64,000 nt of DNA from contig ML996697.1 in assembly GCA_010356995.1 (NCBI GenBank), positions 915,793-979,792 of the forward strand. Reading direction: 5' to 3'. A program made the translations under genes and the position numbers. The stretch is from Trichodelitschia bisporula. Lineage: Eukaryota. The notes beneath the pieces are model-generated. The model saw only the letters and a list, made by a program, of their open reading frames with translations, did no database searches and had not been told where the DNA came from. This document shows positions 38,343-48,400 of this stretch, piece by piece (the first letter of the stretch is position 1; each line of letters starts with the position of its first letter).

Positions 38343-41300
38343 CTAACGAGCGCGGCGCCTCTTCGCCCGTGCCTTCTTCTTAGCAGCCGCCTCAGCAGCA
38401 GCCGCCACCTCCGCAGCATTATCCTCCTCTGCCGTCTGTGTCAGCTCATCCGGACTCTGCTCCACAAGCCCATTCAGCGCTTCGTCATCCAGCTCGCTAA
38501 GGTCTTCACTCATGTCGCGCGGCGTCTCCACGCGCTCGTCGTACACCGTCGTGCCGTCAGGATCGAACGCGCTGAGATACCACGGCACACCGCCCCGCGA
38601 CCGCGATGCGAGTAGTTGCTCCGTCGTGAGGGGCGTTGCGGGGCCGACGCGCGGAGATGGGTCTGTGCTGGCTGAGATGGAGAGCGTGGGCACGGCGGGT
38701 GTGTTGCGCTGACTACGGAATGAAGTTGTGGTGATGGAAATACCTGGGATTGGGGTCGAATGGTTGAGTGCACCGTTGGGCGTGCCGTTGACTTCGCCGT
38801 TGATTGTACCATTGACCTTGAGTGTGTCGTTGAGAGACTCAACAGCAGTTTCGGCGTCAGCCATGACAATGTCAGCATCATTGGCCGTGTTGTTCGCAGT
38901 ATCGTCGGCAGTACCATTAGCCGTGCCGTTAGTCGTGCCGTTCGTCATGCCGTTCGTCGTCCCATTTGTGGAATCCTCGTGGGTAGGCTCATGCAGTTGG
39001 TCGTTCGGATCGAGCAAGTCGACCATTTCAACGTCATCAGCAGGCTGCTCGGTTTCAACGGCGGCCTGAACTTCACCGCCCTGCTCCTCCGCGTTGACAC
39101 GCTCGGTGCCTTCAGCAGGCTCCTCGCCCGCTCCGACAGGATTCGCTTGCCCAGACTCCTCCCCGTTGTCAGGCCCGTCACCGTTGACATGTTCCACGTC
39201 CCCATTGGTTGGTGCGTCCGCATCGGGCAACACGGACTCTTGTTGGTCCCCTTCGGGCTCTAGGCTCACGCTCTTGCGCTTCCTGTTGACCTTCTTTGCG
39301 CTCTTGATCTTGTCTTCCTTGATGTGCGTTTCGCCCTTGCTCACGCGGCTCGTGCCATCATCCGCGTACTCGAGACGCTCGCCGGGAAGCAAGACGCTCT
39401 TGTCCAAGATGGCCTTGAAGATACGCTCGGTGTCGTTTATCGAGTCCGTGTTGTTGGGACAAAGCTCGGCCTCGTTGCGCGCCGCTTCCATGAGCATGGG
39501 CATAACGTACTTAGCGATACGCTGAGCTCGCCCGCGAACGTGCTTCTGAAACTCCGGGGGCTCGGTACGCAGCTGCGCAAGCCGCGTTGTGAAGGCGTGG
39601 GCCAGGTCCTCGACGAGGCTCAGTACAGTCTCGTACTGGCGGAGAATGAGCTTCTCTTTTAGCTCGTTTAGCTGGTCTTTGAAGTAGGACCGATTATTCG
39701 TATCGATCCTAGGAATGTCAGTAGGGGGATCCTGCTCGTGATCAACCTCAACATACGAAAGCGCCTTGTCCACGACAGGCCAGAGCAACGGAATGATAGG
39801 AAAGTAAATAGTGTCCACGAGCGAGCTCATAAGCTGCATGTCCTGGTACTTCAAGTCCTCGCGCTGCTGTATCTGATCGCAGATCTCCAGGACCTTGTGA
39901 ATATCCTGGGACAGCATCTCTGCGAACTCGATGCGGCGCTGCAGAGGGGGACCTCCAGCAGCACCTTCGGCGGCAAAGTCGCGCACCGGTAGCTGCACCG
40001 TCTTAGACGGCTCCGCCTGCACGTCCAGGCCGCGAAGTAGCGGCGCATTGCGGCGAGCCTCGCGTTTGAGCGTCCAGTAGGCGCACACCTTGGCCAGATA
40101 CTCCGGGCGCTTGCGGACCATGAAGCGCGTCAACGTGTTGAGCACGCGATCGAAGATGTAGGCGGGGATAATAGGCGCACCAAACGGCAGACGCCACTCA
40201 TTGTCGTGTTGTGAATTTTGAGCCGCCTGGCGCTTGCGCTTGCTGTTAGGTGATACTTCCACTTCTGCCTCGGGCATCGCCACTATGGCCGCGACGTTCT
40301 GCTGGCGGGCACCCCACTTGCGACCTTTGAAGAAGCGCTTGAAATAGGCCTTGGCCTCAACAATGCCCTTTTCCACGTTATGCTCCTTGCGCCAGTCAGC
40401 TGGCGTGTGCTTATCGCAATAGCACTTGTACACGCTCGTGTCGGTAATCGAGTTCGCATCGTTTTTCATCCGCAGGCAGAGCTGGGCGCGGCGGGCACAC
40501 GTCACGTGGAAGGCTGAGTAGCAGTTGATGTTGTGGCACTGCACGCACGCCCCGGTCTTCTGCTGGCAGATGTAGCACACCAGCTTGTAGCGCGCCTTGG
40601 GAACTTTTTCGACGTCCTGAACGGGTTCCATAAAGGTCATGTTGCCAACCGAGAGCTCGGAGATCCAGAGCGCGCAGAGCAGATGCGACCAGACCTCGGG
40701 ATCATTGGACGGCTTGAAGGCGCCCTCGCTGCTGGGGCAGAACTCACACATCTGAAGAGGGGTTAGTACGGGGGATGTGAGCGATGAATGACACTAACCG
40801 TCGGCATGTGAGGGCGCATCTGGCACTTGCGGCAATGCCACTGGCCTTCGGGGATAAAAGGCACGCCGTAGCACTCCTGGTGGACTGCTAGATCGCACCC
40901 GTCACAGAAGACAATAGCGTTTGTATTTTCACAATCTCCATCGTCGCAGACAGCGCACTTGGTATCGAGCTCCTCGCCAGGTGGCTCACCGTTGACGGCA
41001 GCGGAGGAACCCGCGCGAGGGCGTGTATGCGGCCCCTTGTATGGAGGCTTAGGGATACCTGAGTAGTCAGCGCTCTGTTACTTGCACACAGTGTGTGTAT
41101 ACTCCTTACGCTTGTTCAGTGCGTGCCACTCTCGCTCAATTTGCGTCATGGTGATCTCAAAAATGGCAGGGCGGATACTGTCCAAACCCTCTTTGGAGCG
41201 ATTCTCATTGAGCTTCTGCAGCCAGATGGAATCTTGCTCGTCCATGTCGTACTCGGAGCGTATGGTCTGTTGACCGGTTTTCGGCACATCGTAAACATCA

Positions 41301-42169
41301 TAATCTGGATCAATTCCCAAAGGATCGCTCGGAGCGATGATGTAGCCTTCAGGTCGGATGAAGATGTCGTTCTCGAGGTATCCACAGCGCGCGAGCTGCT
41401 TGTCGACGAAGTTGATACCGACCGTCGGATCGTCTTCAAACTTTTTCCAAGGGTCAACTTTCCGGAAGCTGGGCTTTGGCAGACTAAGTCGCTCCTTGGG
41501 ATTGTTGACCGGAAGTGGAAGAATCTTGCGCGGCGGTGACATGATACCGGTAAGCATGTGGGAACGCGGGCGTCCCACACGACGCTTGAGGGTGCCGGGT
41601 GTGTTCATAACAACAGTGTCATCATTTGGAGGGCTGTTAATGGGAGGAGGCACTTTGGAGGGCGTTCCGTCGCGGCTGTCACCTATGGCAGGGTCTTGCG
41701 CGTCAACCTGGTCGGCGCTGAAGGTCGCGAGCGAGATGTTTGTGTCGAGGTCCGGGTGGAATTCCTCCCACCCGCGCTCCTCACGTGGCTTGTATCCTTC
41801 GTAGTTCGTCATTGCCACTGCTGCGGCAGCAGAAGTGTATCGTGGCCGGGGTGGAGGTGGTTCGCGACGCAGGCGAGAGTAGGTTGCGGTGGGGGAGCGT
41901 GAGTAGCTGGGGGAGCGGGCCTGCTCCTCGTTGCGCCTCTTGGGGCGTGTACGCGAACTCGTCGCTGAAGGTCTTGGCGTGGAGTTCTGCTGAGGGGATA
42001 TCTCGTTGCCGTTGTCATCGATGTATCGACCGCCGCCTCCTACGCCGCCAGGCACGTACCTGACCTTCTTGCGCGGTGGCTCCGAGCTGTCTGCCGTGCT
42101 TGCCCTGGCGCGTGGACGACCAGGCCGGCGTTGCGCACTTCGATTCGGCGTGGTGAGTGCTGGGGCCAT
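38343..42169 (-). CDS. NTO1: NuA3 histone acetyltransferase scaffold (Nto1/BRPF/peregrin family): EPL-like + PHD + PZP zinc fingers; introns 41059-41109, 40752-40798 and probably 39709-39756
   Basis: [90 protein letters not shown]; second finger [57 protein letters not shown]. Confidence 0.93.
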
Positions 42170-42831
42170 CTGAGGATGATCTGGAGTGGGATTGTGGGGT
42201 GTTGGTTGGTGTCGAGGACCAGATGGGATGTGACTAGGAGGTTGTAGGTTGAGGTCGGGGAGGATCTAGAAGACGCGGGTAGATCGCGGTCGCGGACGCG
42301 ATTTGGACGGGGCAAATGAGTCGCACATCTGCGGAGAAAAGGACAACTGGTGGTTGAGAGAGTCTCGTTGATGGGAAGAGAGGACAGATGGTACGCGTTT
42401 CGTCTCTTGTTCTGTCGGTTCCGTCTCGTCGTAGCCCCCCAGATCTTGGACGTCGTTCGTCCGGGGGGGGGAGTTGGTCTTGGCGCGCTGTTGGGGCGAT
42501 TTGATTATGTAAGGGGGTCACATGGCAGGGATGCGAGCCGGGGGGTATTCGAGATGCATTGCGCAATTGGGGTAGTTGGTGATGCACCTACGGTGTACTT
42601 CACACTCACGCGAAATATTTACGTTACTCACGCTGTTGACATTGTTGACGCCGTTGACGCTGCATTTTCTGTTGCTCGGTGCTCCTCCTTGACCTCTCTT
42701 CTGTGTCGCATCTCCGATTACTCATCCTGATCCCCCATCTGTTGTAGCTCTCGTCGCCCATCGCGACATCGTGTTTACCCCTCCCGCCCCTCTCCGCCAT
42801 GTAGCGAACCTCGCGCCAACCAATACTACGA

Positions 42832-43874: not shown

Positions 43875-45363
43875 TAGCCCTCATCACTGTCATTTCGAGC
43901 CACATCTAAGGCGCAAGGCATCTGGTAGGCATCCGAGATAGCATCACAGATGCATAAATAGCCCACTACCAAATAATTATGCAAACAAGCACAACGGTCG
44001 CCAGTCGCGGCAACAGTGACGGCAAATTAGCCCCTTATCGGCAGCCACGCGACGTGCCGCAACGGAAGACGGGACATTTTGCGCGCCAATGGATGCGAGG
44101 CGGGAGTCGGATGGGTTCGCTGGGATAGCACGGACAGATACGATGTTCCTGCATAAGTGCATTGGCTATCAAGTCTTGGAGAGGGGAAGAGAGAAGCGGA
44201 CTGGAGGAGAGAAAGAGAAGCGACTGGGGATGCGGAAGGCGGAGCCGTTTAGCATTGCGCTATTCTCCGCCCGTTCCCCTGAGCTGGGTGTGGAGCCTTG
44301 CATGTGGGGGTTATGGAGCTCGAACTACTGCATGTTACCAGTATCTTCAGCTCGACCGGCTGGACTTCATATGACCAGCTGCATCAATTGAACTCCCTAT
44401 CCTCAGTCTAGTCTAGATCTCGCAGTCAGAGCAGAGCAGCTGAAGAAGCAGTGCAATTCGCGGCTGCAGACCAATAACCAGCATCAGCCGCGTTTGCCTT
44501 CCCCGTACGGATGTACTTATCGACCTGCCTGTTCGATGCTGCATCACCACCACTCCCACCATCACCTCTCACAGTCCCGATGCCAGGTTTCCTGGATCCC
44601 GACATCTGCATAGTAGTCCGTGCTGTGCTGCTGCTAGATTGCTTGTTTGCATTGCTTCCGCGTCCCTCTCCCGACATTGCTTCATGTCGACTCGACGCTC
44701 TGCTTCCGCTGTCAGCGCATGCAGAGCGCATGCGACTATCTCCCGCGTCAAGCCCAAAGCCATCGCCTACCGTACCAGCAGAAGAAGAAGAAAAGGCGTT
44801 TCAAGTCTCAATGTGCCGCGTGCAAAGCCCACAAGGCGCAAACGCAGAGGCCCATTGAGTGGCGTCAGCACCTCAATCACCCCCCTAGTTGGACCCAAAG
44901 ATTAAAATGGCCCGGCTTGGGATTTGGCTTTTCGGAATGCTTTCAGATGGAAGAGGGGGGGGACTGAAGCATAGCGACATCAACTTCACTTCCTCACTTC
45001 CTCTCGCCATCTCCTCCTCTCCCGCAATATCTCGAGATCAGCGCGCTGTGCGTTTGTTTGTTTGTTTACCGAACCCGCTTGCGCTTCACCAACCATCGCA
45101 AGCTCTCCCAAACTCCCTCGCTATCTCGTCTCCCAAACTCCCTCCCTATCTCGTCCCCCACTGGCCACTCCACCGTCCACCCAGGCAAGGGGACCCCGGA
45201 GTCACCCCCATCCGCACTCTCAGCAGTCCACTCTCCGCGCGGGGTCGTGACCTGCGATGGCGTACACCTTGGTACATCCCCCATCTACCCTCTCCCCGCC
45301 ACCACTCTCTGTCAATCTTCCACACATCCATTGTACACCACGCCCTCCGCCCCTCCACCAGCC

Positions 45364-47695
45364 ATGTCCCTCCGCCGCGTCTGGTACAAACTCTTCTCTA
45401 ACGAACACACCCAGTTCCCCCCCTCCGACGCCCCGCCCTCCGTCCCACGCACCCGCTCCCTCTCGCGCCAGCGCTCCAAATCCCCCGCCCTCACCAGCAT
45501 CCTCGAGGCCACGCCTCCCCGCCCACAGGCGCCAGTCGAGCACAACCCCTCCTCCGCCTACCCCGCCGAAGCCGATAACGAAGATGCCTCCTCTGAGCCC
45601 CTCATAACCGACCTTGCAACCCGCAGCATCCCTCCCGAATACGCGCCTCTCAAATCCGCAACCCCAGAGCCAGGCACGCGGCGCGAGGCGAGTCGGCGCG
45701 CGGGGAAGCGCCCGGCAAGTTTTGCGTGTGATGGCGATTCTGTGTCCATGTATGGCAGTCTAGGGCTGGGGCAGAGGGAGATCCACATTCCGACGCGGAC
45801 GAGGTGAGTGACGGTTGTCGGGCACACGCTCGGCCTCGGGTGCGCAGTAGATACTGATACCCCTCAGCAGCAGCCGCGTCGTAAGCAACGGCACGGGCAC
45901 GAGCCGCAGGCGCAAGCGGCAAGGACGTGAGTTCTCCGCCTCCTCGTCCGCCCCCACGACCCCGGACCTGCGCTTAGGCAGCTCAGACGACAGCGTTCGC
46001 TCCTACTCCACCCACACATCGAGCGTCACGCGCAGCCCCCCCCTTCTCTCGAAACCGAGTATAGATGCGGATCGCCTGGCGCCGGTCACCGAAGACGACC
46101 CCCGGAGCTTCGATCTCGTGCAACCGGCGAGCGCCCCGGTGGGCGGCGGATTTGAGCTGGAGAAGAGGGTGGAGGAGATGTTCAGCGCGCAGCATCTGAG
46201 GGAGGTATTTGCTGACCCGGGGTTGTTACTGCGGTTTACGCATTTCTTGTCTAGTGGGAGGCCGGGGCGCATTCCGCTGCTGATATATTACCTCGATGCG
46301 CTCAAGGCGCTCCGGGCACTGGCGTACGCGAATGCGGTGAGCGAGGCGCTGGAACCCATTCCGGGACATGCGTTCACGGACAACCCACCGGGCCCGACGG
46401 TGAATGGCGTGTTGGAGGAGCGCGCGGAGCAGGCGTTCGATGCTCTGGTGCGCGATGATTTACCGGCCTTCGTGGGCCATGTGTTCACGCAGATCGCGGC
46501 GGATGCGATACACAAGCGCATCACGGGCGCGGAGCCGCTGGAGCTCGCGGATGCGGAGGGATTGGCGGAGGTGTTCTGCCTCACGGACCCGAGTCGGGCG
46601 GATAACCCCATCGTCTATGCCTCCGAAGGTACCTTTCCCCTCCCCCCCCAAATGCCCATTCCCCCTAACCCGAAGCCAGAATTCCACAAAACAACCCAAT
46701 ACGGCGTCACCTACTCCCTCGGCCGCAACCCCCGCTTCCTCCAAGGCCCCCGCACAACACCCTCCTCCATAACCACCCTTCAAGCAGCCCTCGCTCAACC
46801 AACAGAGTCCACGCACCTCCTCCTCAACTACCGCCGCGACGGCTCGCCCTTCCTGAATCTCCTCCTCCTCGCGCCGCTCACCGACTCGCGCGGCCAGCTT
46901 AGGTACTGGCTAGGCGCACACGTCGACGCTACGCCCCTCGCACGGTCCTGCGCGGGGCTAGATGGGCTGCAGCGCTTACTTTCCCGCGGCGGCGAAGGCG
47001 GTGAAGCAGGCGCGCAGAACGAGTTGCAGGACCTATGCGAAATGTTCAACCTCGACGAGCTCGCCACCATATCCCGGCGCGGCGGCGCCATGCACCGGGA
47101 CCTGCTCTCCCCCACACCCAACTTACACACCAAACGCAGTTTCAGCGGCGCGCCGCCGCCCGCGCATTTCTCCCCCGGTGTCGGGGTGCGGAGTTTGTTT
47201 CCGAAATACCTGATCCTGAGGCCGCATCCGAGTCTGCGGATTTTGTTCGCGAGTCCCGCGTTAAGGACGCCAAGGCTGTTGCAGACCCCATTTTTGAGTA
47301 GGATTGGCGGGAGTCCGAGGGTTAGGGATGAGCTTACGGCTGCGCTTGCGGGGGGGCGAGGGGTTACGGCTAAGGTGCGCTGGTTGAGTGCGCGGGAGGG
47401 AGAAGGGGATGGGGAAGATGGGGAGGAGGGAAGGGTGAGGTGGATTCATTGTACGCCCCTGCTGGGACGGGAGGGGGTTGTGGGTGCTTGGGTTGTGCTT
47501 GTTGTTGATGAGGAGAGTGCGGGGGGGGAGGGAAGGAGGGTTAGTACGGGGTGGAAGCCGGCGCCGGTGGTGGAGGGGCGGAAGAAGGTTGCTGGACTTG
47601 GGGTTATTAGAGACAGGACGGATGAGGCGCCGTTTGAGAGGGGGATGTCGGTAGGGGGGGGGAGTGAGAGGGGGGAGGAATGGGGACTCGAGTGA
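45364..47695 (+). CDS. RGS-like - LOV(PAS) - C-terminal PAS-like/DUF protein (fungal RGS-LOV, BcLOV4-type architecture) with a non-canonical LOV active site; introns 45804-~45867 and 46629-46679
   Basis: SFDLVQP..LEKRVEEMFSAQHLREVFADP..IPLLIYYLDALKALRAL (RGS-like). LOV core EGLAEVFCLTDPSRADNPIVYASEEFHKTTQYG..GRNPRFLQGPRT..LLNYRRDGSPFLNLLLLAPLTDSRGQLRYWLGAHVD. C-domain YLILRPHPSLRILFASPALR..GVTAKVRW..RWIHCTPLLG..VGAWVVLVVD. Confidence 0.88.
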
Positions 47696-48300
47696 GGGAA
47701 TCTGAACTTTGGATGAACAATTTGGAGTTGTGGGTATGATGTCGGAAGGATTATGCGGCGATATAAGGCGATATAAGGTGTTTTGAGCGCGAGCTGGATG
47801 GCATGGGATGAAGATTGTCACTCTTGGTGCTTTGAGGGGGGTTTTGGCGCAGGCGCTTCTGGATATATGGGTATGACATATGGCTAGCGGATAGATTTCT
47901 GTTTTGCGAGAGAATGTATAGTGTGTAAGCTGTCTGCTCCGTTACGTTGTGGTGGCGATGTCCGTTGCATCTTGAAGTGCGGTTTAGGATCCACGATGGA
48001 TACTTGATTTCGGGGTGAAACTGTTAGCGCATATTCAAGTTATAAATCGACGACCGGCACATTTCGCTTCTAGATCATCAAAACATCCTCGTTTACCTCT
48101 TCTCACTCATTTAACTAAACCTTTTCCACACCAAATATCATCGCGAAAGCGGTGCAAAAAGAAAGAAGTTCAGATACTCGTGACCGCATCTTCAAATGCC
48201 TCCCGCAAACGCCACCGCATAATCCCATCGCAGCGCTGATACGATTTCACCTCCGACTCCGGGTCCCAAAAAAAATCCGTTCTCATAATCAGATGAAAAG

Positions 48301-48312: not shown

Positions 48313-48400
48313 TGGACGCGGAGGGAATTGAACCCCCGACCGTTCACAATATTGCATCAGGCAATGCAAAGCGAAAATCATACCCCTAGACCACGCGCCC
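48313..48400 (-). tRNA. tRNA-Ala(UGC) with a 16-nt intron (48349-48364)
   Basis: The reverse complement folds as a cloverleaf: acceptor GGGCGCG/CGCGTCC with G3:U70 (Ala identity), anticodon arm TTCGC-TT TGC A[intron]T-GTGAA, T-arm GGGGG-TTCAATT-CCCTC, discriminator A. Confidence 0.95.

Follow-up and report, generated by a model that had tools for sequence, protein, structure and literature searches.

The gene EJ06DRAFT_511929 of Trichodelitschia bisporula raises the question of whether a fungal protein of the BcLOV4 type can still sense light when both the adduct-forming Cys and the active-site (relay) Gln of its LOV domain are replaced. The gene lies in a stretch of 64,000 nucleotides of contig ML996697.1, which we refer to as the window. 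BcLOV4 translocates to membranes under blue light (Glantz 2018, PMC6099885), and proteins of its type are also temperature-responsive, through their C-terminal domain (PMC12667789). As their output, these relatives bind anionic membranes, and regulation of G proteins is presumed. The family was named RGS-LOV-DUF and later renamed RGS-LOV-TSD or 'RLT'; the T. bisporula protein shares with BcLOV4 and its homologues the full-length architecture and the gene neighbourhood of canonical orthologues, whereas it has Pro for C292 and His for Q355 of BcLOV4, and is devoid of an Arg in the F-alpha helix and a Glu in the G-beta strand.

Gene model and domain architecture

The window gene is EJ06DRAFT_511929, transcribed from the + strand, with three introns and a product of 726 aa (Table 1). 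The spliced translation of the window was identical to the public protein P0001 from residue 6 on, and the first exon of P0001 (MAYTL) agreed with the 45272-45414 joint seen in the run contigs. The position of intron 3 corresponded to a gap of 17 residues in the phmmer alignment to solved LOV domains.

Table 1. Features of EJ06DRAFT_511929, in window coordinates
Feature	Position	Strand	Basis
Full coding region, RGS-like/LOV/PAS-like gene	45257..47695	+	spliced translation vs P0001
Exons	45257-45271, 45415-45803, 45868-46628, 46680-47695	+	
Intron 1, 143 nt, GT..AG	45272..45414	+	bridged by X3, X4 contigs; not by DNA runs X1, X2
Intron 2, 64 nt, GT..AG	45804..45867	+	bridged by X3, X4 contigs, 255 letters on shorter side
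Intron 3, 51 nt, GT..AG, in frame, within LOV domain	46629..46679	+	bridged by X3, X4 contigs
N-terminal helical 'RGS-like' domain, ~residues 231-354	46154..46525	+	AlphaFold2 model
LOV domain, residues 366-478, split by intron 3	46559..46948	+	Pfam PAS_9, phmmer
CCC, Pro406, at the adduct-forming Cys position (BcLOV4 C292)	46730..46732	+	phmmer alignment; four runs agree
ACC, Thr421, in place of family-invariant Arg, F-alpha helix	46775..46777	+	family column count
CAC, His434, in place of near-invariant Glu, G-beta strand	46814..46816	+	family column count
CAC, His469, at the active-site/relay Gln position, I-beta strand (oat LOV2 Q513, BcLOV4 Q355)	46919..46921	+	alignment; four runs agree
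LOV to C-terminal domain linker (J-alpha and amphipathic-helix region in BcLOV4)	46949..47206	+	family alignment
C-terminal PAS-like domain (the 'DUF' of the 2018 paper and the 'TSD' of the 2025 preprint)	47207..47509	+	model and Foldseek
Stop codon	47693-47695	+	

As judged by sequence comparison, the protein contains a PAS fold with homology to solved LOV domains: the Pfam model PAS_9 scored 36.2 bits (cut-off 27), and phmmer against solved structures gave E values of 1.8e-19 to miniSOG and 4.4e-19 to oat phototropin LOV2 (2v0u). The linker that follows could be aligned, with several substitutions, with the family segment DEFQELSEMFN..ELDTVR..GGRMHRE. For the C-terminal domain, the AlphaFold2 model of 47150-47614 (mean pLDDT 78.5) had five strands plus helices, and a Foldseek search of the PDB with this model returned 203 matches at E <= 0.001, the top rows being all LOV/PAS and the best match 6ph3_C (E 7e-6). 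The predicted arrangement, a PAS-like C-terminal domain after a conserved linker, is that of the BcLOV4-type family.

The N-terminal domain was modelled by AlphaFold2 (46064-46549) as all-helical, with a mean pLDDT of 86.9. Foldseek found no match to it at E <= 0.001, and the best row, RGS10, stood above that level with an E value of 1.0. In VIA the best row was RGS7 (Z 7.0, rmsd 3.8, 86 residues aligned), and coiled coils tied with it. The Pfam RGS domain was not found in the window protein, nor at E <= 1 in any of the ten family members tested. The first-pass annotation had described an intact RGS-LOV-DUF frame; its LOV and C-terminal parts stood, whereas the 'RGS' label is not confirmed by these values.

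Altered LOV positions, orthology and constraint

The spliced frame of the LOV domain reads GRNPRFLQG and YWLGAHVD, and P0001 is identical there. In the alignment with oat phototropin LOV2 these stretches are placed under GRNCRFLQG and YFIGVQLD, which bears out what had been claimed on first inspection of the letters, namely that Pro and His occupy the Cys and the Gln site, respectively. The argument made there that the Pro is not a single-base error also holds, as CCC is at least two base changes away from any Cys codon (TGT/TGC); the change from a Gln codon (CAA/CAG) to CAC takes one. The rest of the flavin site had been described as intact. This is correct for the GRNxRFLQG frame and for both Asn, so that on sequence grounds the scaffold of the flavin pocket appears mostly retained, but two further conserved residues of the domain are lost. 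The column of Thr421 holds R in 132 of 134 aligned rows and that of His434 holds E in 130 of 135, and in each of them the T. bisporula protein alone has the T or the H.

Two published definitions can be compared with these data. Nine flavin-site positions of YtvA are named in the Methods of PMC4682037 (G, N, R, F, L and Q of the motif, two Asn and the Gln); eight are kept in the T. bisporula protein and the Gln is lost. The Cys-less LOV* proteins of Yee et al. are defined by at least nine of ten other conserved residues; here the Cys is absent and eight of the nine residues named in those Methods are present. With LOV homology and His in place of the Gln, the domain falls by its sequence into the natural Gln-deficient LOV class of Dietler et al. 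2022.

The letters themselves were compared with four sequencing runs, and over 45200-47900 no differing letters were found in any of them, at CCC and CAC included; the TGC and CAG whose presence in raw reads would speak for an error were not seen. Two of the runs (X1, X2) are DNA and possibly the source of the assembly, while X3 and X4 come from a different sample and study. Contigs of both X3 and X4 span all three GT..AG introns as spliced joints, and record 9 of X4 covers 46678-47340 with no other letters; contig cover of these two runs is absent at 47475-47656. X3 and X4 are assigned to RNA by an automated guess only, and we infer their RNA origin from the spliced joints. On this basis, the gene is expressed and correctly spliced. 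The substitutions are not an assembly error, because spliced contigs from a second sample show the same letters. It is very improbable that Pro406 and His469 are sequencing or assembly errors, or mutations acquired by one strain in culture. Such an origin could be argued from the fact that there is one species and probably one strain, with two DNA runs that may be the assembly source; however, the spliced contigs carrying the same letters stem from another sample and study, the Pro takes two base changes, and the protein departs from all relatives at ~45% of conserved columns, which fits a long divergence and not a recent slip.

Among the best 120 matches we found 119 homologues at E <= 3e-143, with ~90% of the protein aligned and 46-53% identity. 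Cys was present in 119 of the 120 aligned best homologues and Gln likewise in 119; the T. bisporula protein alone had Pro and His. In further shorter proteins and fragments, Cys and Gln were both present in 82 of 82. The searched collections, including a search with exon 4 only (185-590 aa), contained no relative above 54% identity, and the combination of Pro and His is known from one species only. Seven other RGS-LOV representatives are non-canonical at the Cys and/or the Gln site; losses of either residue are sporadic in the rest of the family.

The protein was the sole one of T. bisporula among the 120 best matches, and likewise among the 120 best of the exon-4 search. In the tree it was placed inside the canonical clade, beside P0121 of Westerdykella ornata (support 0.94). 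The gene NTO1 lies ~3 kb from EJ06DRAFT_511929, and the same two genes share a contig, with locus tags differing by two, in Coniosporium (H2199_004165 and 004167) and in Meristemomyces (LTR85_002757 and 002759). Because of its uniqueness among the best matches, its nesting in the canonical clade and the shared NTO1 neighbourhood, the sequences identify the protein as a positional orthologue of BcLOV4-type proteins and not a stray paralogue. The BcLOV4-type anatomy proposed by the first-pass annotation is upheld.

Of the 120 terminal branches, that of the T. bisporula protein is the longest (0.79 vs a median of 0.096), and the protein keeps 148 of 164 near-invariant columns; Thr421 is also counted among the 16 deviations. 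NTO1 from the same window served as a control gene. Its branch is 0.91 vs a median of 0.091, its identity to the consensus is the lowest, and it keeps 181 of 206 near-invariant columns (25 deviations). A relaxed constraint specific to our gene, as the long branch might suggest, was rejected, and the long branch is lineage-wide, because NTO1 is equally diverged. The whole protein thus appears to be under about the same constraint as this housekeeping neighbour. When domains were considered separately, the divergence from the family consensus relative to the median member was 2.5x for LOV, 2.1x for the C-terminal domain and 1.45x for the RGS-like domain, with 1.7x for NTO1. With an identity of 0.646 to the consensus, the LOV domain ranks last among the 120, the value above it being 0.761, and the C-terminal domain (0.625) likewise ranks last.

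These values could be taken as signs of a decaying sensor module, in which the gene is transcribed, useful flavin binding by the LOV domain has been lost, and the protein is heading to loss or serves as an RGS-like scaffold only. Four LOV positions that rank among the most conserved are altered, LOV and C-terminal domain are both the farthest from consensus, residues at the Cys and Gln sites have been lost sporadically in the family, and a review states that removal of the homologue RGS5 left Magnaporthe without an apparent phenotype (PMC10056346). We nevertheless consider such decay rather improbable. The 726-codon frame is intact and its three introns are correctly spliced, near-invariant columns are kept at 51 of 57 positions in LOV and 46 of 52 in the C-terminal domain, the overall divergence equals that of NTO1, and an engineered LOV domain that combines the lack of Cys with His (CagFbFP) still binds FMN (10.1101/2021.02.05.429969).

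Consequences for light sensing

The canonical thiol adduct is impossible without the Cys, and by analogy with other LOV domains the T. bisporula LOV almost certainly has no canonical photocycle. Light sensing in the usual style has probably been lost from the protein. In our preferred explanation, to which we give about an even chance, it is a conserved orthologue in which the canonical photocycle has been lost and which is now constitutive or acts via temperature or redox. Judging from mutants of other LOV domains, His469 would suppress flavin photochemistry while the flavin stays bound. The domain would then no longer be a fast, reversible blue-light switch, and its output (anionic membrane binding and, presumably, G-protein regulation) would be fixed in a lit-like or a dark-like form. 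Alternatively, the output could be set by the remaining inputs, i.e. temperature, by way of the C-terminal domain, or the redox state of the flavin.

The mutants in question are YF1 Q123H, NmPAL Q347H and AsLOV2 Q513H, with His at the same I-beta position as in T. bisporula. They bound flavin, formed no adduct and gave no light response; His, unlike Leu or Met, ended photochemistry in all three LOV domains, with slight bleaching at high light doses (PMC9098866). NmPAL Q347H was constitutively lit-like and YF1 Q123H was tilted to dark-type activity. Unlike in the T. bisporula protein, the Cys is retained in these variants, which are domains of bacterial or plant origin coupled to other effectors, and the state in which they are locked varies (PMC9098866). 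A parallel at the two sites is CagFbFP (C85A) Q148H (PDB 6YWQ, 6YWR), which like T. bisporula has no Cys and has His at the Gln site, and 6ywq was among the phmmer sequence matches of the T. bisporula LOV. This protein binds FMN and is fluorescent, blue-shifted by 8 nm and mildly pH-sensitive (10.1101/2021.02.05.429969); it differs in being an engineered bacterial mini-domain with Ala instead of Pro and without an effector.

Some observations count against the preferred explanation. The engineered BcLOV4 C292P has the same Cys-to-Pro change in the same family, but keeps the Gln, to which T. bisporula adds the Gln-to-His change. In mammalian cells, light still drives membrane binding of BcLOV4 C292A and C292P, more slowly and with a more stable active state; it persisted for > 10 h at 37 C and binding in the dark was raised (PMC12667789). 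Since these variants still reach the membrane in light, Pro alone does not blind the protein. Moreover, flavin binding might be weaker with the F-alpha Arg gone, and the excess divergence of LOV and the C-terminal domain would also fit a partial decay of the sensor module.

The same variants point to another possibility, namely cysteine-less light sensing, in which blue light would photoreduce the bound flavin to the neutral semiquinone, the protonation of N5 being relayed without Gln, by water or His. The protein would then be a slow, integrating and thermally robust membrane switch or, equally, a cellular redox sensor. Signalling of Cys-less VVD and YF1 proceeds via the semiquinone, and BAT-LOV, in which the Pro is natural, responds to flavin reduction (Yee 2015, PMC4682037). 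The Gln is generally dispensable for LOV signalling and natural Gln-less LOV domains function (Dietler 2022, PMC9098866), and the frame of the flavin pocket is kept in T. bisporula. On the other hand, His abolished photochemistry in every one of the three LOV domains tested (PMC9098866), photoreduction of BAT-LOV with Pro is slower by about two orders of magnitude than that of Cys-less VVD (PMC4682037), and two more family-invariant LOV residues (Arg, Glu) are gone. We regard cysteine-less light sensing as somewhat unlikely. What the first-pass annotation had stated on BAT-LOV, Gln-less LOV domains and the translocation of BcLOV4 agrees with the papers (PMC4682037, PMC9098866, PMC6099885). As possible roles it had named a redox or ligand sensor, a light-independent version, and a photosensitiser or fluorophore, all of them compatible with the sequence.

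A further, quite unlikely possibility is that a light-and-temperature switch was turned light-blind by the two substitutions together, giving a thermo- or redox sensor re-purposed from a photoreceptor. Pro406 would abolish any photocycle, and with His469 the interface between LOV and linker would stay locked in a lit-like form, by comparison with NmPAL Q347H and with BcLOV4 Q355N, which is membrane-bound in the dark whereas C292A is soluble in vitro (PMC6099885). Temperature, sensed by the C-terminal domain, or flavin redox would then be the sole control on whether the RGS-like protein binds membranes. If true, this would fit a dung fungus, the spores of which transit a warm, dark and anoxic gut before growth on cool dung.

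Natural precedents and significance

LOV domains lacking the Cys, lacking the Gln, or doubly deficient (Pro and no Gln) have already been catalogued in nature. BAT-LOV* of halobacteria, catalogued along with ~70 natural Cys-less LOV-like proteins, has Pro at the Cys position, as does T. bisporula, while it is archaeal, has another architecture and keeps the Gln by the authors' filter (PMC4682037). About 350 natural Gln-deficient LOV receptors, of the same class as T. bisporula at the Gln site, are listed in Suppl. Data 3 of PMC9098866, and two of them belong to the RGS-LOV family: OTB05271.1 (P0175, Hypoxylon) and KAF2858525.1 (P0152, Piedraia). Four rows of that catalogue read NPRFLQG and thus combine Pro with the lack of Gln, none of them characterised; they differ from T. 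bisporula in that the residue in place of the Gln is never His and that no fungal RGS-LOV protein is among them. The readable part of the supplementary alignment of Dietler 2022 does not include the T. bisporula protein. As to whether the double variant is an already described, common subfamily, it is not so in the RGS-LOV family, whereas LOV domains with Pro and no Gln are listed in that supplement. By title among the matches listed, the literature on Trichodelitschia included no photoreceptor study and that on RGS-LOV/BcLOV4 no natural Cys-less members, which is weak evidence that the variant is unpublished.

The weight of the finding is limited by its coming from one species with no close relative, and by the comparable doubly deficient LOV sequences in published lists. 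BcLOV4, in wide use as an optogenetic tool, is the model of a fungal photoreceptor class, the natural role of which is barely known. In T. bisporula, a change also introduced by engineering (Cys-to-Pro) occurs in a natural orthologue, paired with one known to stop LOV photochemistry (Gln-to-His), and the protein thus provides a natural test case for the role of the family without light input, for the state locked by His and for stand-alone temperature sensing. Together with the seven other non-canonical representatives, it shows that light sensing should not be assumed for all photoreceptor-like proteins in catalogues of fungal genomes.

Gene structure and the two substituted LOV sites

The spliced translation of the RGS-LOV-type gene agrees with the public 'hypothetical protein EJ06DRAFT_511929 [Trichodelitschia bisporula]' (P0001, 726 aa), which was also the top match of our homologue search, where its identity of 97% fell short because the in-frame intron was included in the query. 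The species is a Dothideomycete of the order Phaeotrichales (taxonomy lookup) and is described as living on dung (PMC7082219).

Features of the window discussed in the text
Feature	Position	Strand	Remarks
EJ06DRAFT_511929, RGS-LOV-type gene	ATG 45257-45259, stop 47693-47695	+	four exons
intron 1	45272-45414	+	contig joints, GT..AG
intron 2	45804-45867	+	contig joints, GT..AG
intron 3, in-frame	46629-46679	+	contig joints, GT..AG
NTO1, NuA3 histone acetyltransferase component (P0274, 1226 aa)	38346-42265	-	EPL1 + PHD fingers; ~3 kb from RGS-LOV gene
tRNA gene, 88 nt	48313-48400	-	Rfam tRNA 44.9 bits; ~600 bp downstream of RGS-LOV stop
open frame, 995 aa	1647-4631	-	Pfam: PNP_UDP_1 (nucleoside-phosphorylase-like), NPHP3_N/NACHT NTPase
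open frame, 1589 aa	56103-60869	-	very long
open frame, 851 aa	60892-63444	-	very long

The first-pass annotation had read Pro for the adduct-forming Cys and His for the active-site Gln, and both readings hold. The codons CCC (46730-46732) and CAC (46919-46921) are present in the window sequence, and a sequence search of solved structures aligned the LOV region with oat phototropin LOV2 and miniSOG (E about 2e-19), pairing GRNPRFLQG with GRNCRFLQG and YWLGAHVD with YFIGVQLD; the sole gap, of 17 residues, coincided exactly with the in-frame intron. Thus Pro406 occupies the Cys position and His469 the Gln position. The codons were also checked in reads, by comparing positions 45200-47900 with four public runs: two DNA runs, which may be the assembly's own source and hence not independent, and two runs from another sample and study. 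No differing letters were listed for any of the four. Contigs of both other-sample runs have spliced joints at all three introns, whereas those of the DNA runs do not; no run is recorded as RNA, and from these joints we infer that the other-sample contigs are transcript-derived and therefore that the gene is expressed, with splicing in keeping with the annotation. One of these contigs extends over 46678-47340 and shows 0 differences; the second has 1 difference within 46678-47396, which does not appear among the tabulated differences lying away from contig ends and which we take to be located at the contig end. Both stop shortly before a G-rich, low-complexity stretch at the 3' end of the coding sequence (47400-47690, plus strand), in which Gly, Glu and Arg codons are repeated in runs.

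The LOV domain, which apart from the two sites had been described as intact, keeps 51 of its 57 near-invariant columns; besides C406P and Q469H, the deviations are F385Y, R392K, R421T and E434H, so the description stands only in part. In the wider representative set, Arg is found at position 421, in the F-alpha helix, in 132 of 134 rows of the alignment, and Glu at position 434, in the G-beta strand, in 130 of 135. The solved-structure alignment pairs these two positions with oat LOV2 K465 and V478, and we conjecture that R421T and E434H might weaken flavin binding. By simple arithmetic, the chance that six random deviations among 57 columns include both key sites is about 0.009. The co-occurrence of Pro and His looks linked, and after the loss of one key residue the other was probably released to vary.

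The proposed RGS-LOV-DUF layout was upheld at its C-terminal end. The BcLOV4 'DUF' had been proposed to be PAS-like (PMC6099885), and the predicted model of this domain (pLDDT 78.5) matches 203 PDB chains at E <= 0.001, LOV/PAS structures with a best E of 7e-6, a fold match that confirms the PAS-like nature of the BcLOV4-type 'DUF' at the level of the model. For the N-terminal helical domain (pLDDT 86.9), RGS domains recur among the top fold matches without significance (Foldseek E 1.0), the Z of 7.0 to RGS7 (VIA) is level with coiled coils, and the Pfam RGS model matched none of the 10 family members tested. Support for the 'RGS' label thus comes from the literature and not from these tests. 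According to a review (PMC10056346), RGS5, the homologue in Magnaporthe, is a binder of G-alpha subunits, and cAMP is higher once RGS5 is lost.

Elsewhere in the window, the anticodon of the tRNA gene was not named by ARAGORN, and this gene probably contains an intron. The 995-aa open frame has, judging by its Pfam domains, a fungal NLR-type architecture; neither of the two very long frames contained a Pfam family at E <= 0.001.

Non-canonical sites within the BcLOV4-type family

Among the best 120 proteins of the homologue search, aligned with MAFFT, 119 had Cys and 119 had Gln, and Pro with His occurred in the T. bisporula protein only. A second search with exon 4 alone, in a length band of 185-590 aa aimed at fragments of closer relatives, gave 111 new proteins: Cys and Gln were present in all 82 spanning both sites, Gln in all 29 further fragments spanning the second site only, and no relative exceeded 54% identity to the query. 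The Pro/His variant has been seen in one species, without a close relative for gauging conservation. When 1.84 billion cluster representatives were searched exhaustively with HMMER, 14,726 proteins reached E <= 0.001, and the best 150 of these were examined; leaving out four giant multi-LOV proteins (P0123, P0127, P0183, P0230), we retained 145 family representatives, query included. Cys/Gln was found in 115 of the 123 spanning both sites. Besides the query, seven were non-canonical (Cys site/Gln site): P0147 of Cercospora (Ser/Gln), P0158 of Daldinia (Ser/Met), P0213 (Thr/Ser), P0198 of Curvularia kusanoi (Cys/Arg, with a canonical copy, P0045, in the same species), P0152 of Piedraia hortae (Cys/Ala), P0175 of Hypoxylon (Cys/Leu) and P0192 of Sarea (Ala/Gln, its garbled mid-domain looking like an error of the gene model). 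A FastTree was built from 230 members (237 picked by length, 7 removed for >35% gaps); in it P0147/P0213, P0158/P0175 and P0198, and likewise P0152, were lone tips or pairs within otherwise canonical clades, and we read these as apparently sporadic, independent losses.

Cercospora has a second RGS-LOV-type gene, annotated 'Phototropin-2', whose motif is GRNSSFLQG in C. beticola (P0147), C. berteroae (P0269) and C. kikuchii (P0270) alike; both the Cys and the Arg after it are replaced by Ser. Gln is retained in the two species with a strand-motif match, P0269 having none, and C. beticola also carries the canonical P0064, 'Phototropin-1A'. This gene looks like a conserved Cys-less paralogue.

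Beyond the family, natural LOVs lacking Cys (about 70, in which it is replaced by Ala, His or Pro; PMC4682037) or Gln (about 350, replacements including His; PMC9098866) are on record, as the first-pass annotation had stated. Supplementary file 5 of PMC9098866, an alignment, includes two BcLOV4-type members, OTB05271.1 (P0175) and KAF2858525.1 (P0152), both also found independently in our searches, and four rows with NPRFLQG, that is, Pro without Gln; the T. bisporula protein, or any Pro/His pair, is absent from that alignment.

Orthology and divergence of the lineage

Locus tags suggest that the RGS-LOV gene and NTO1 are also neighbours in Coniosporium tulheliwenetii (H2199_004165 and H2199_004167) and Meristemomyces frigidus (LTR85_002759 and LTR85_002757), the contigs within each pair being equal in length, and the common NTO1 neighbourhood was therefore taken as positional orthology. 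Neither homologue search had a further T. bisporula protein among its best 120. In the 230-member tree the protein lay within a canonical Dothideomycete group, adjoining Westerdykella ornata P0121 (SH-like support 0.94), of the largely dung-inhabiting Sporormiaceae, whereas in the NTO1 tree T. bisporula grouped with Tothia and Verruconis (0.98). This conflict could be due to long-branch attraction or convergence.

The T. bisporula protein had the longest terminal branch of the 120 (0.79, median 0.096) and the lowest mean identity, and deviated at 16 of 164 near-invariant columns (median 0.5). As a control, T. bisporula NTO1 was compared with its own 119 best homologues by the same procedure, and it too had the longest branch (0.91, median 0.091) and the lowest identity to consensus (0.556, median 0.737), with 25 of 206 near-invariant columns deviating. 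This like behaviour mostly removes release from constraint as a gene-specific cause of the long branch; the lineage as a whole is therefore isolated and fast-evolving. By our own arithmetic, with the median family member set at 1, distance from consensus was 2.5 for the LOV domain, 2.1 for the C-terminal domain, 1.56 for the linker and 1.45 for the RGS-like domain, against 1.7 for NTO1, so that any extra acceleration of the sensor half is modest at most. That the sensor module is in decay seems improbable to us, as the reading frame is unbroken, splicing is correct and near-invariant columns are kept both in LOV (51/57) and in the C-terminal domain (46/52).

Photochemistry and output

In earlier studies, BcLOV4 C292A lost light-driven lipid binding in vitro and Q355N was bound in the dark (PMC6099885). 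According to a 2025 preprint (PMC12667789), C292A and C292P were still light-activated in mammalian cells, more slowly, with raised dark binding and an active state that persisted for over 10 h at 37 C, and the authors ascribed this activation to the flavin semiquinone; a light response was seen in 8 of 11 BcLOV4-type homologues tested, and temperature was also sensed, via the C-terminal domain. Gln-to-His variants of YF1, NmPAL and oat LOV2 retained flavin but formed no adduct and did not respond to light; NmPAL was locked in a lit-like state and YF1 tilted toward dark-type activity (PMC9098866). CagFbFP (C85A) with Q148H, which combines loss of Cys with His, bound FMN and was fluorescent, with an 8 nm blue shift and mild pH sensitivity (10.1101/2021.02.05.429969).

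In the T. bisporula LOV domain the flavin-Cys adduct is impossible. By analogy with these mutants, flavin probably stays bound, and we infer that His469 would also block or strongly damp its photochemistry. On these two grounds, the impossible adduct and the presumed His block, we rank the absence of a fast switch first, slow signalling through photoreduction, a doubtful reading, second and sensor decay third. Our leading reading, held with about even confidence, is that the protein is a conserved orthologue in which no fast light switch operates and whose output would be fixed or set by temperature or redox. The substitutions are real and their combination is new for the BcLOV4-type family, and the T. 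bisporula protein is a natural counterpart to two engineered LOV mutations, Cys-to-Pro and Gln-to-His.
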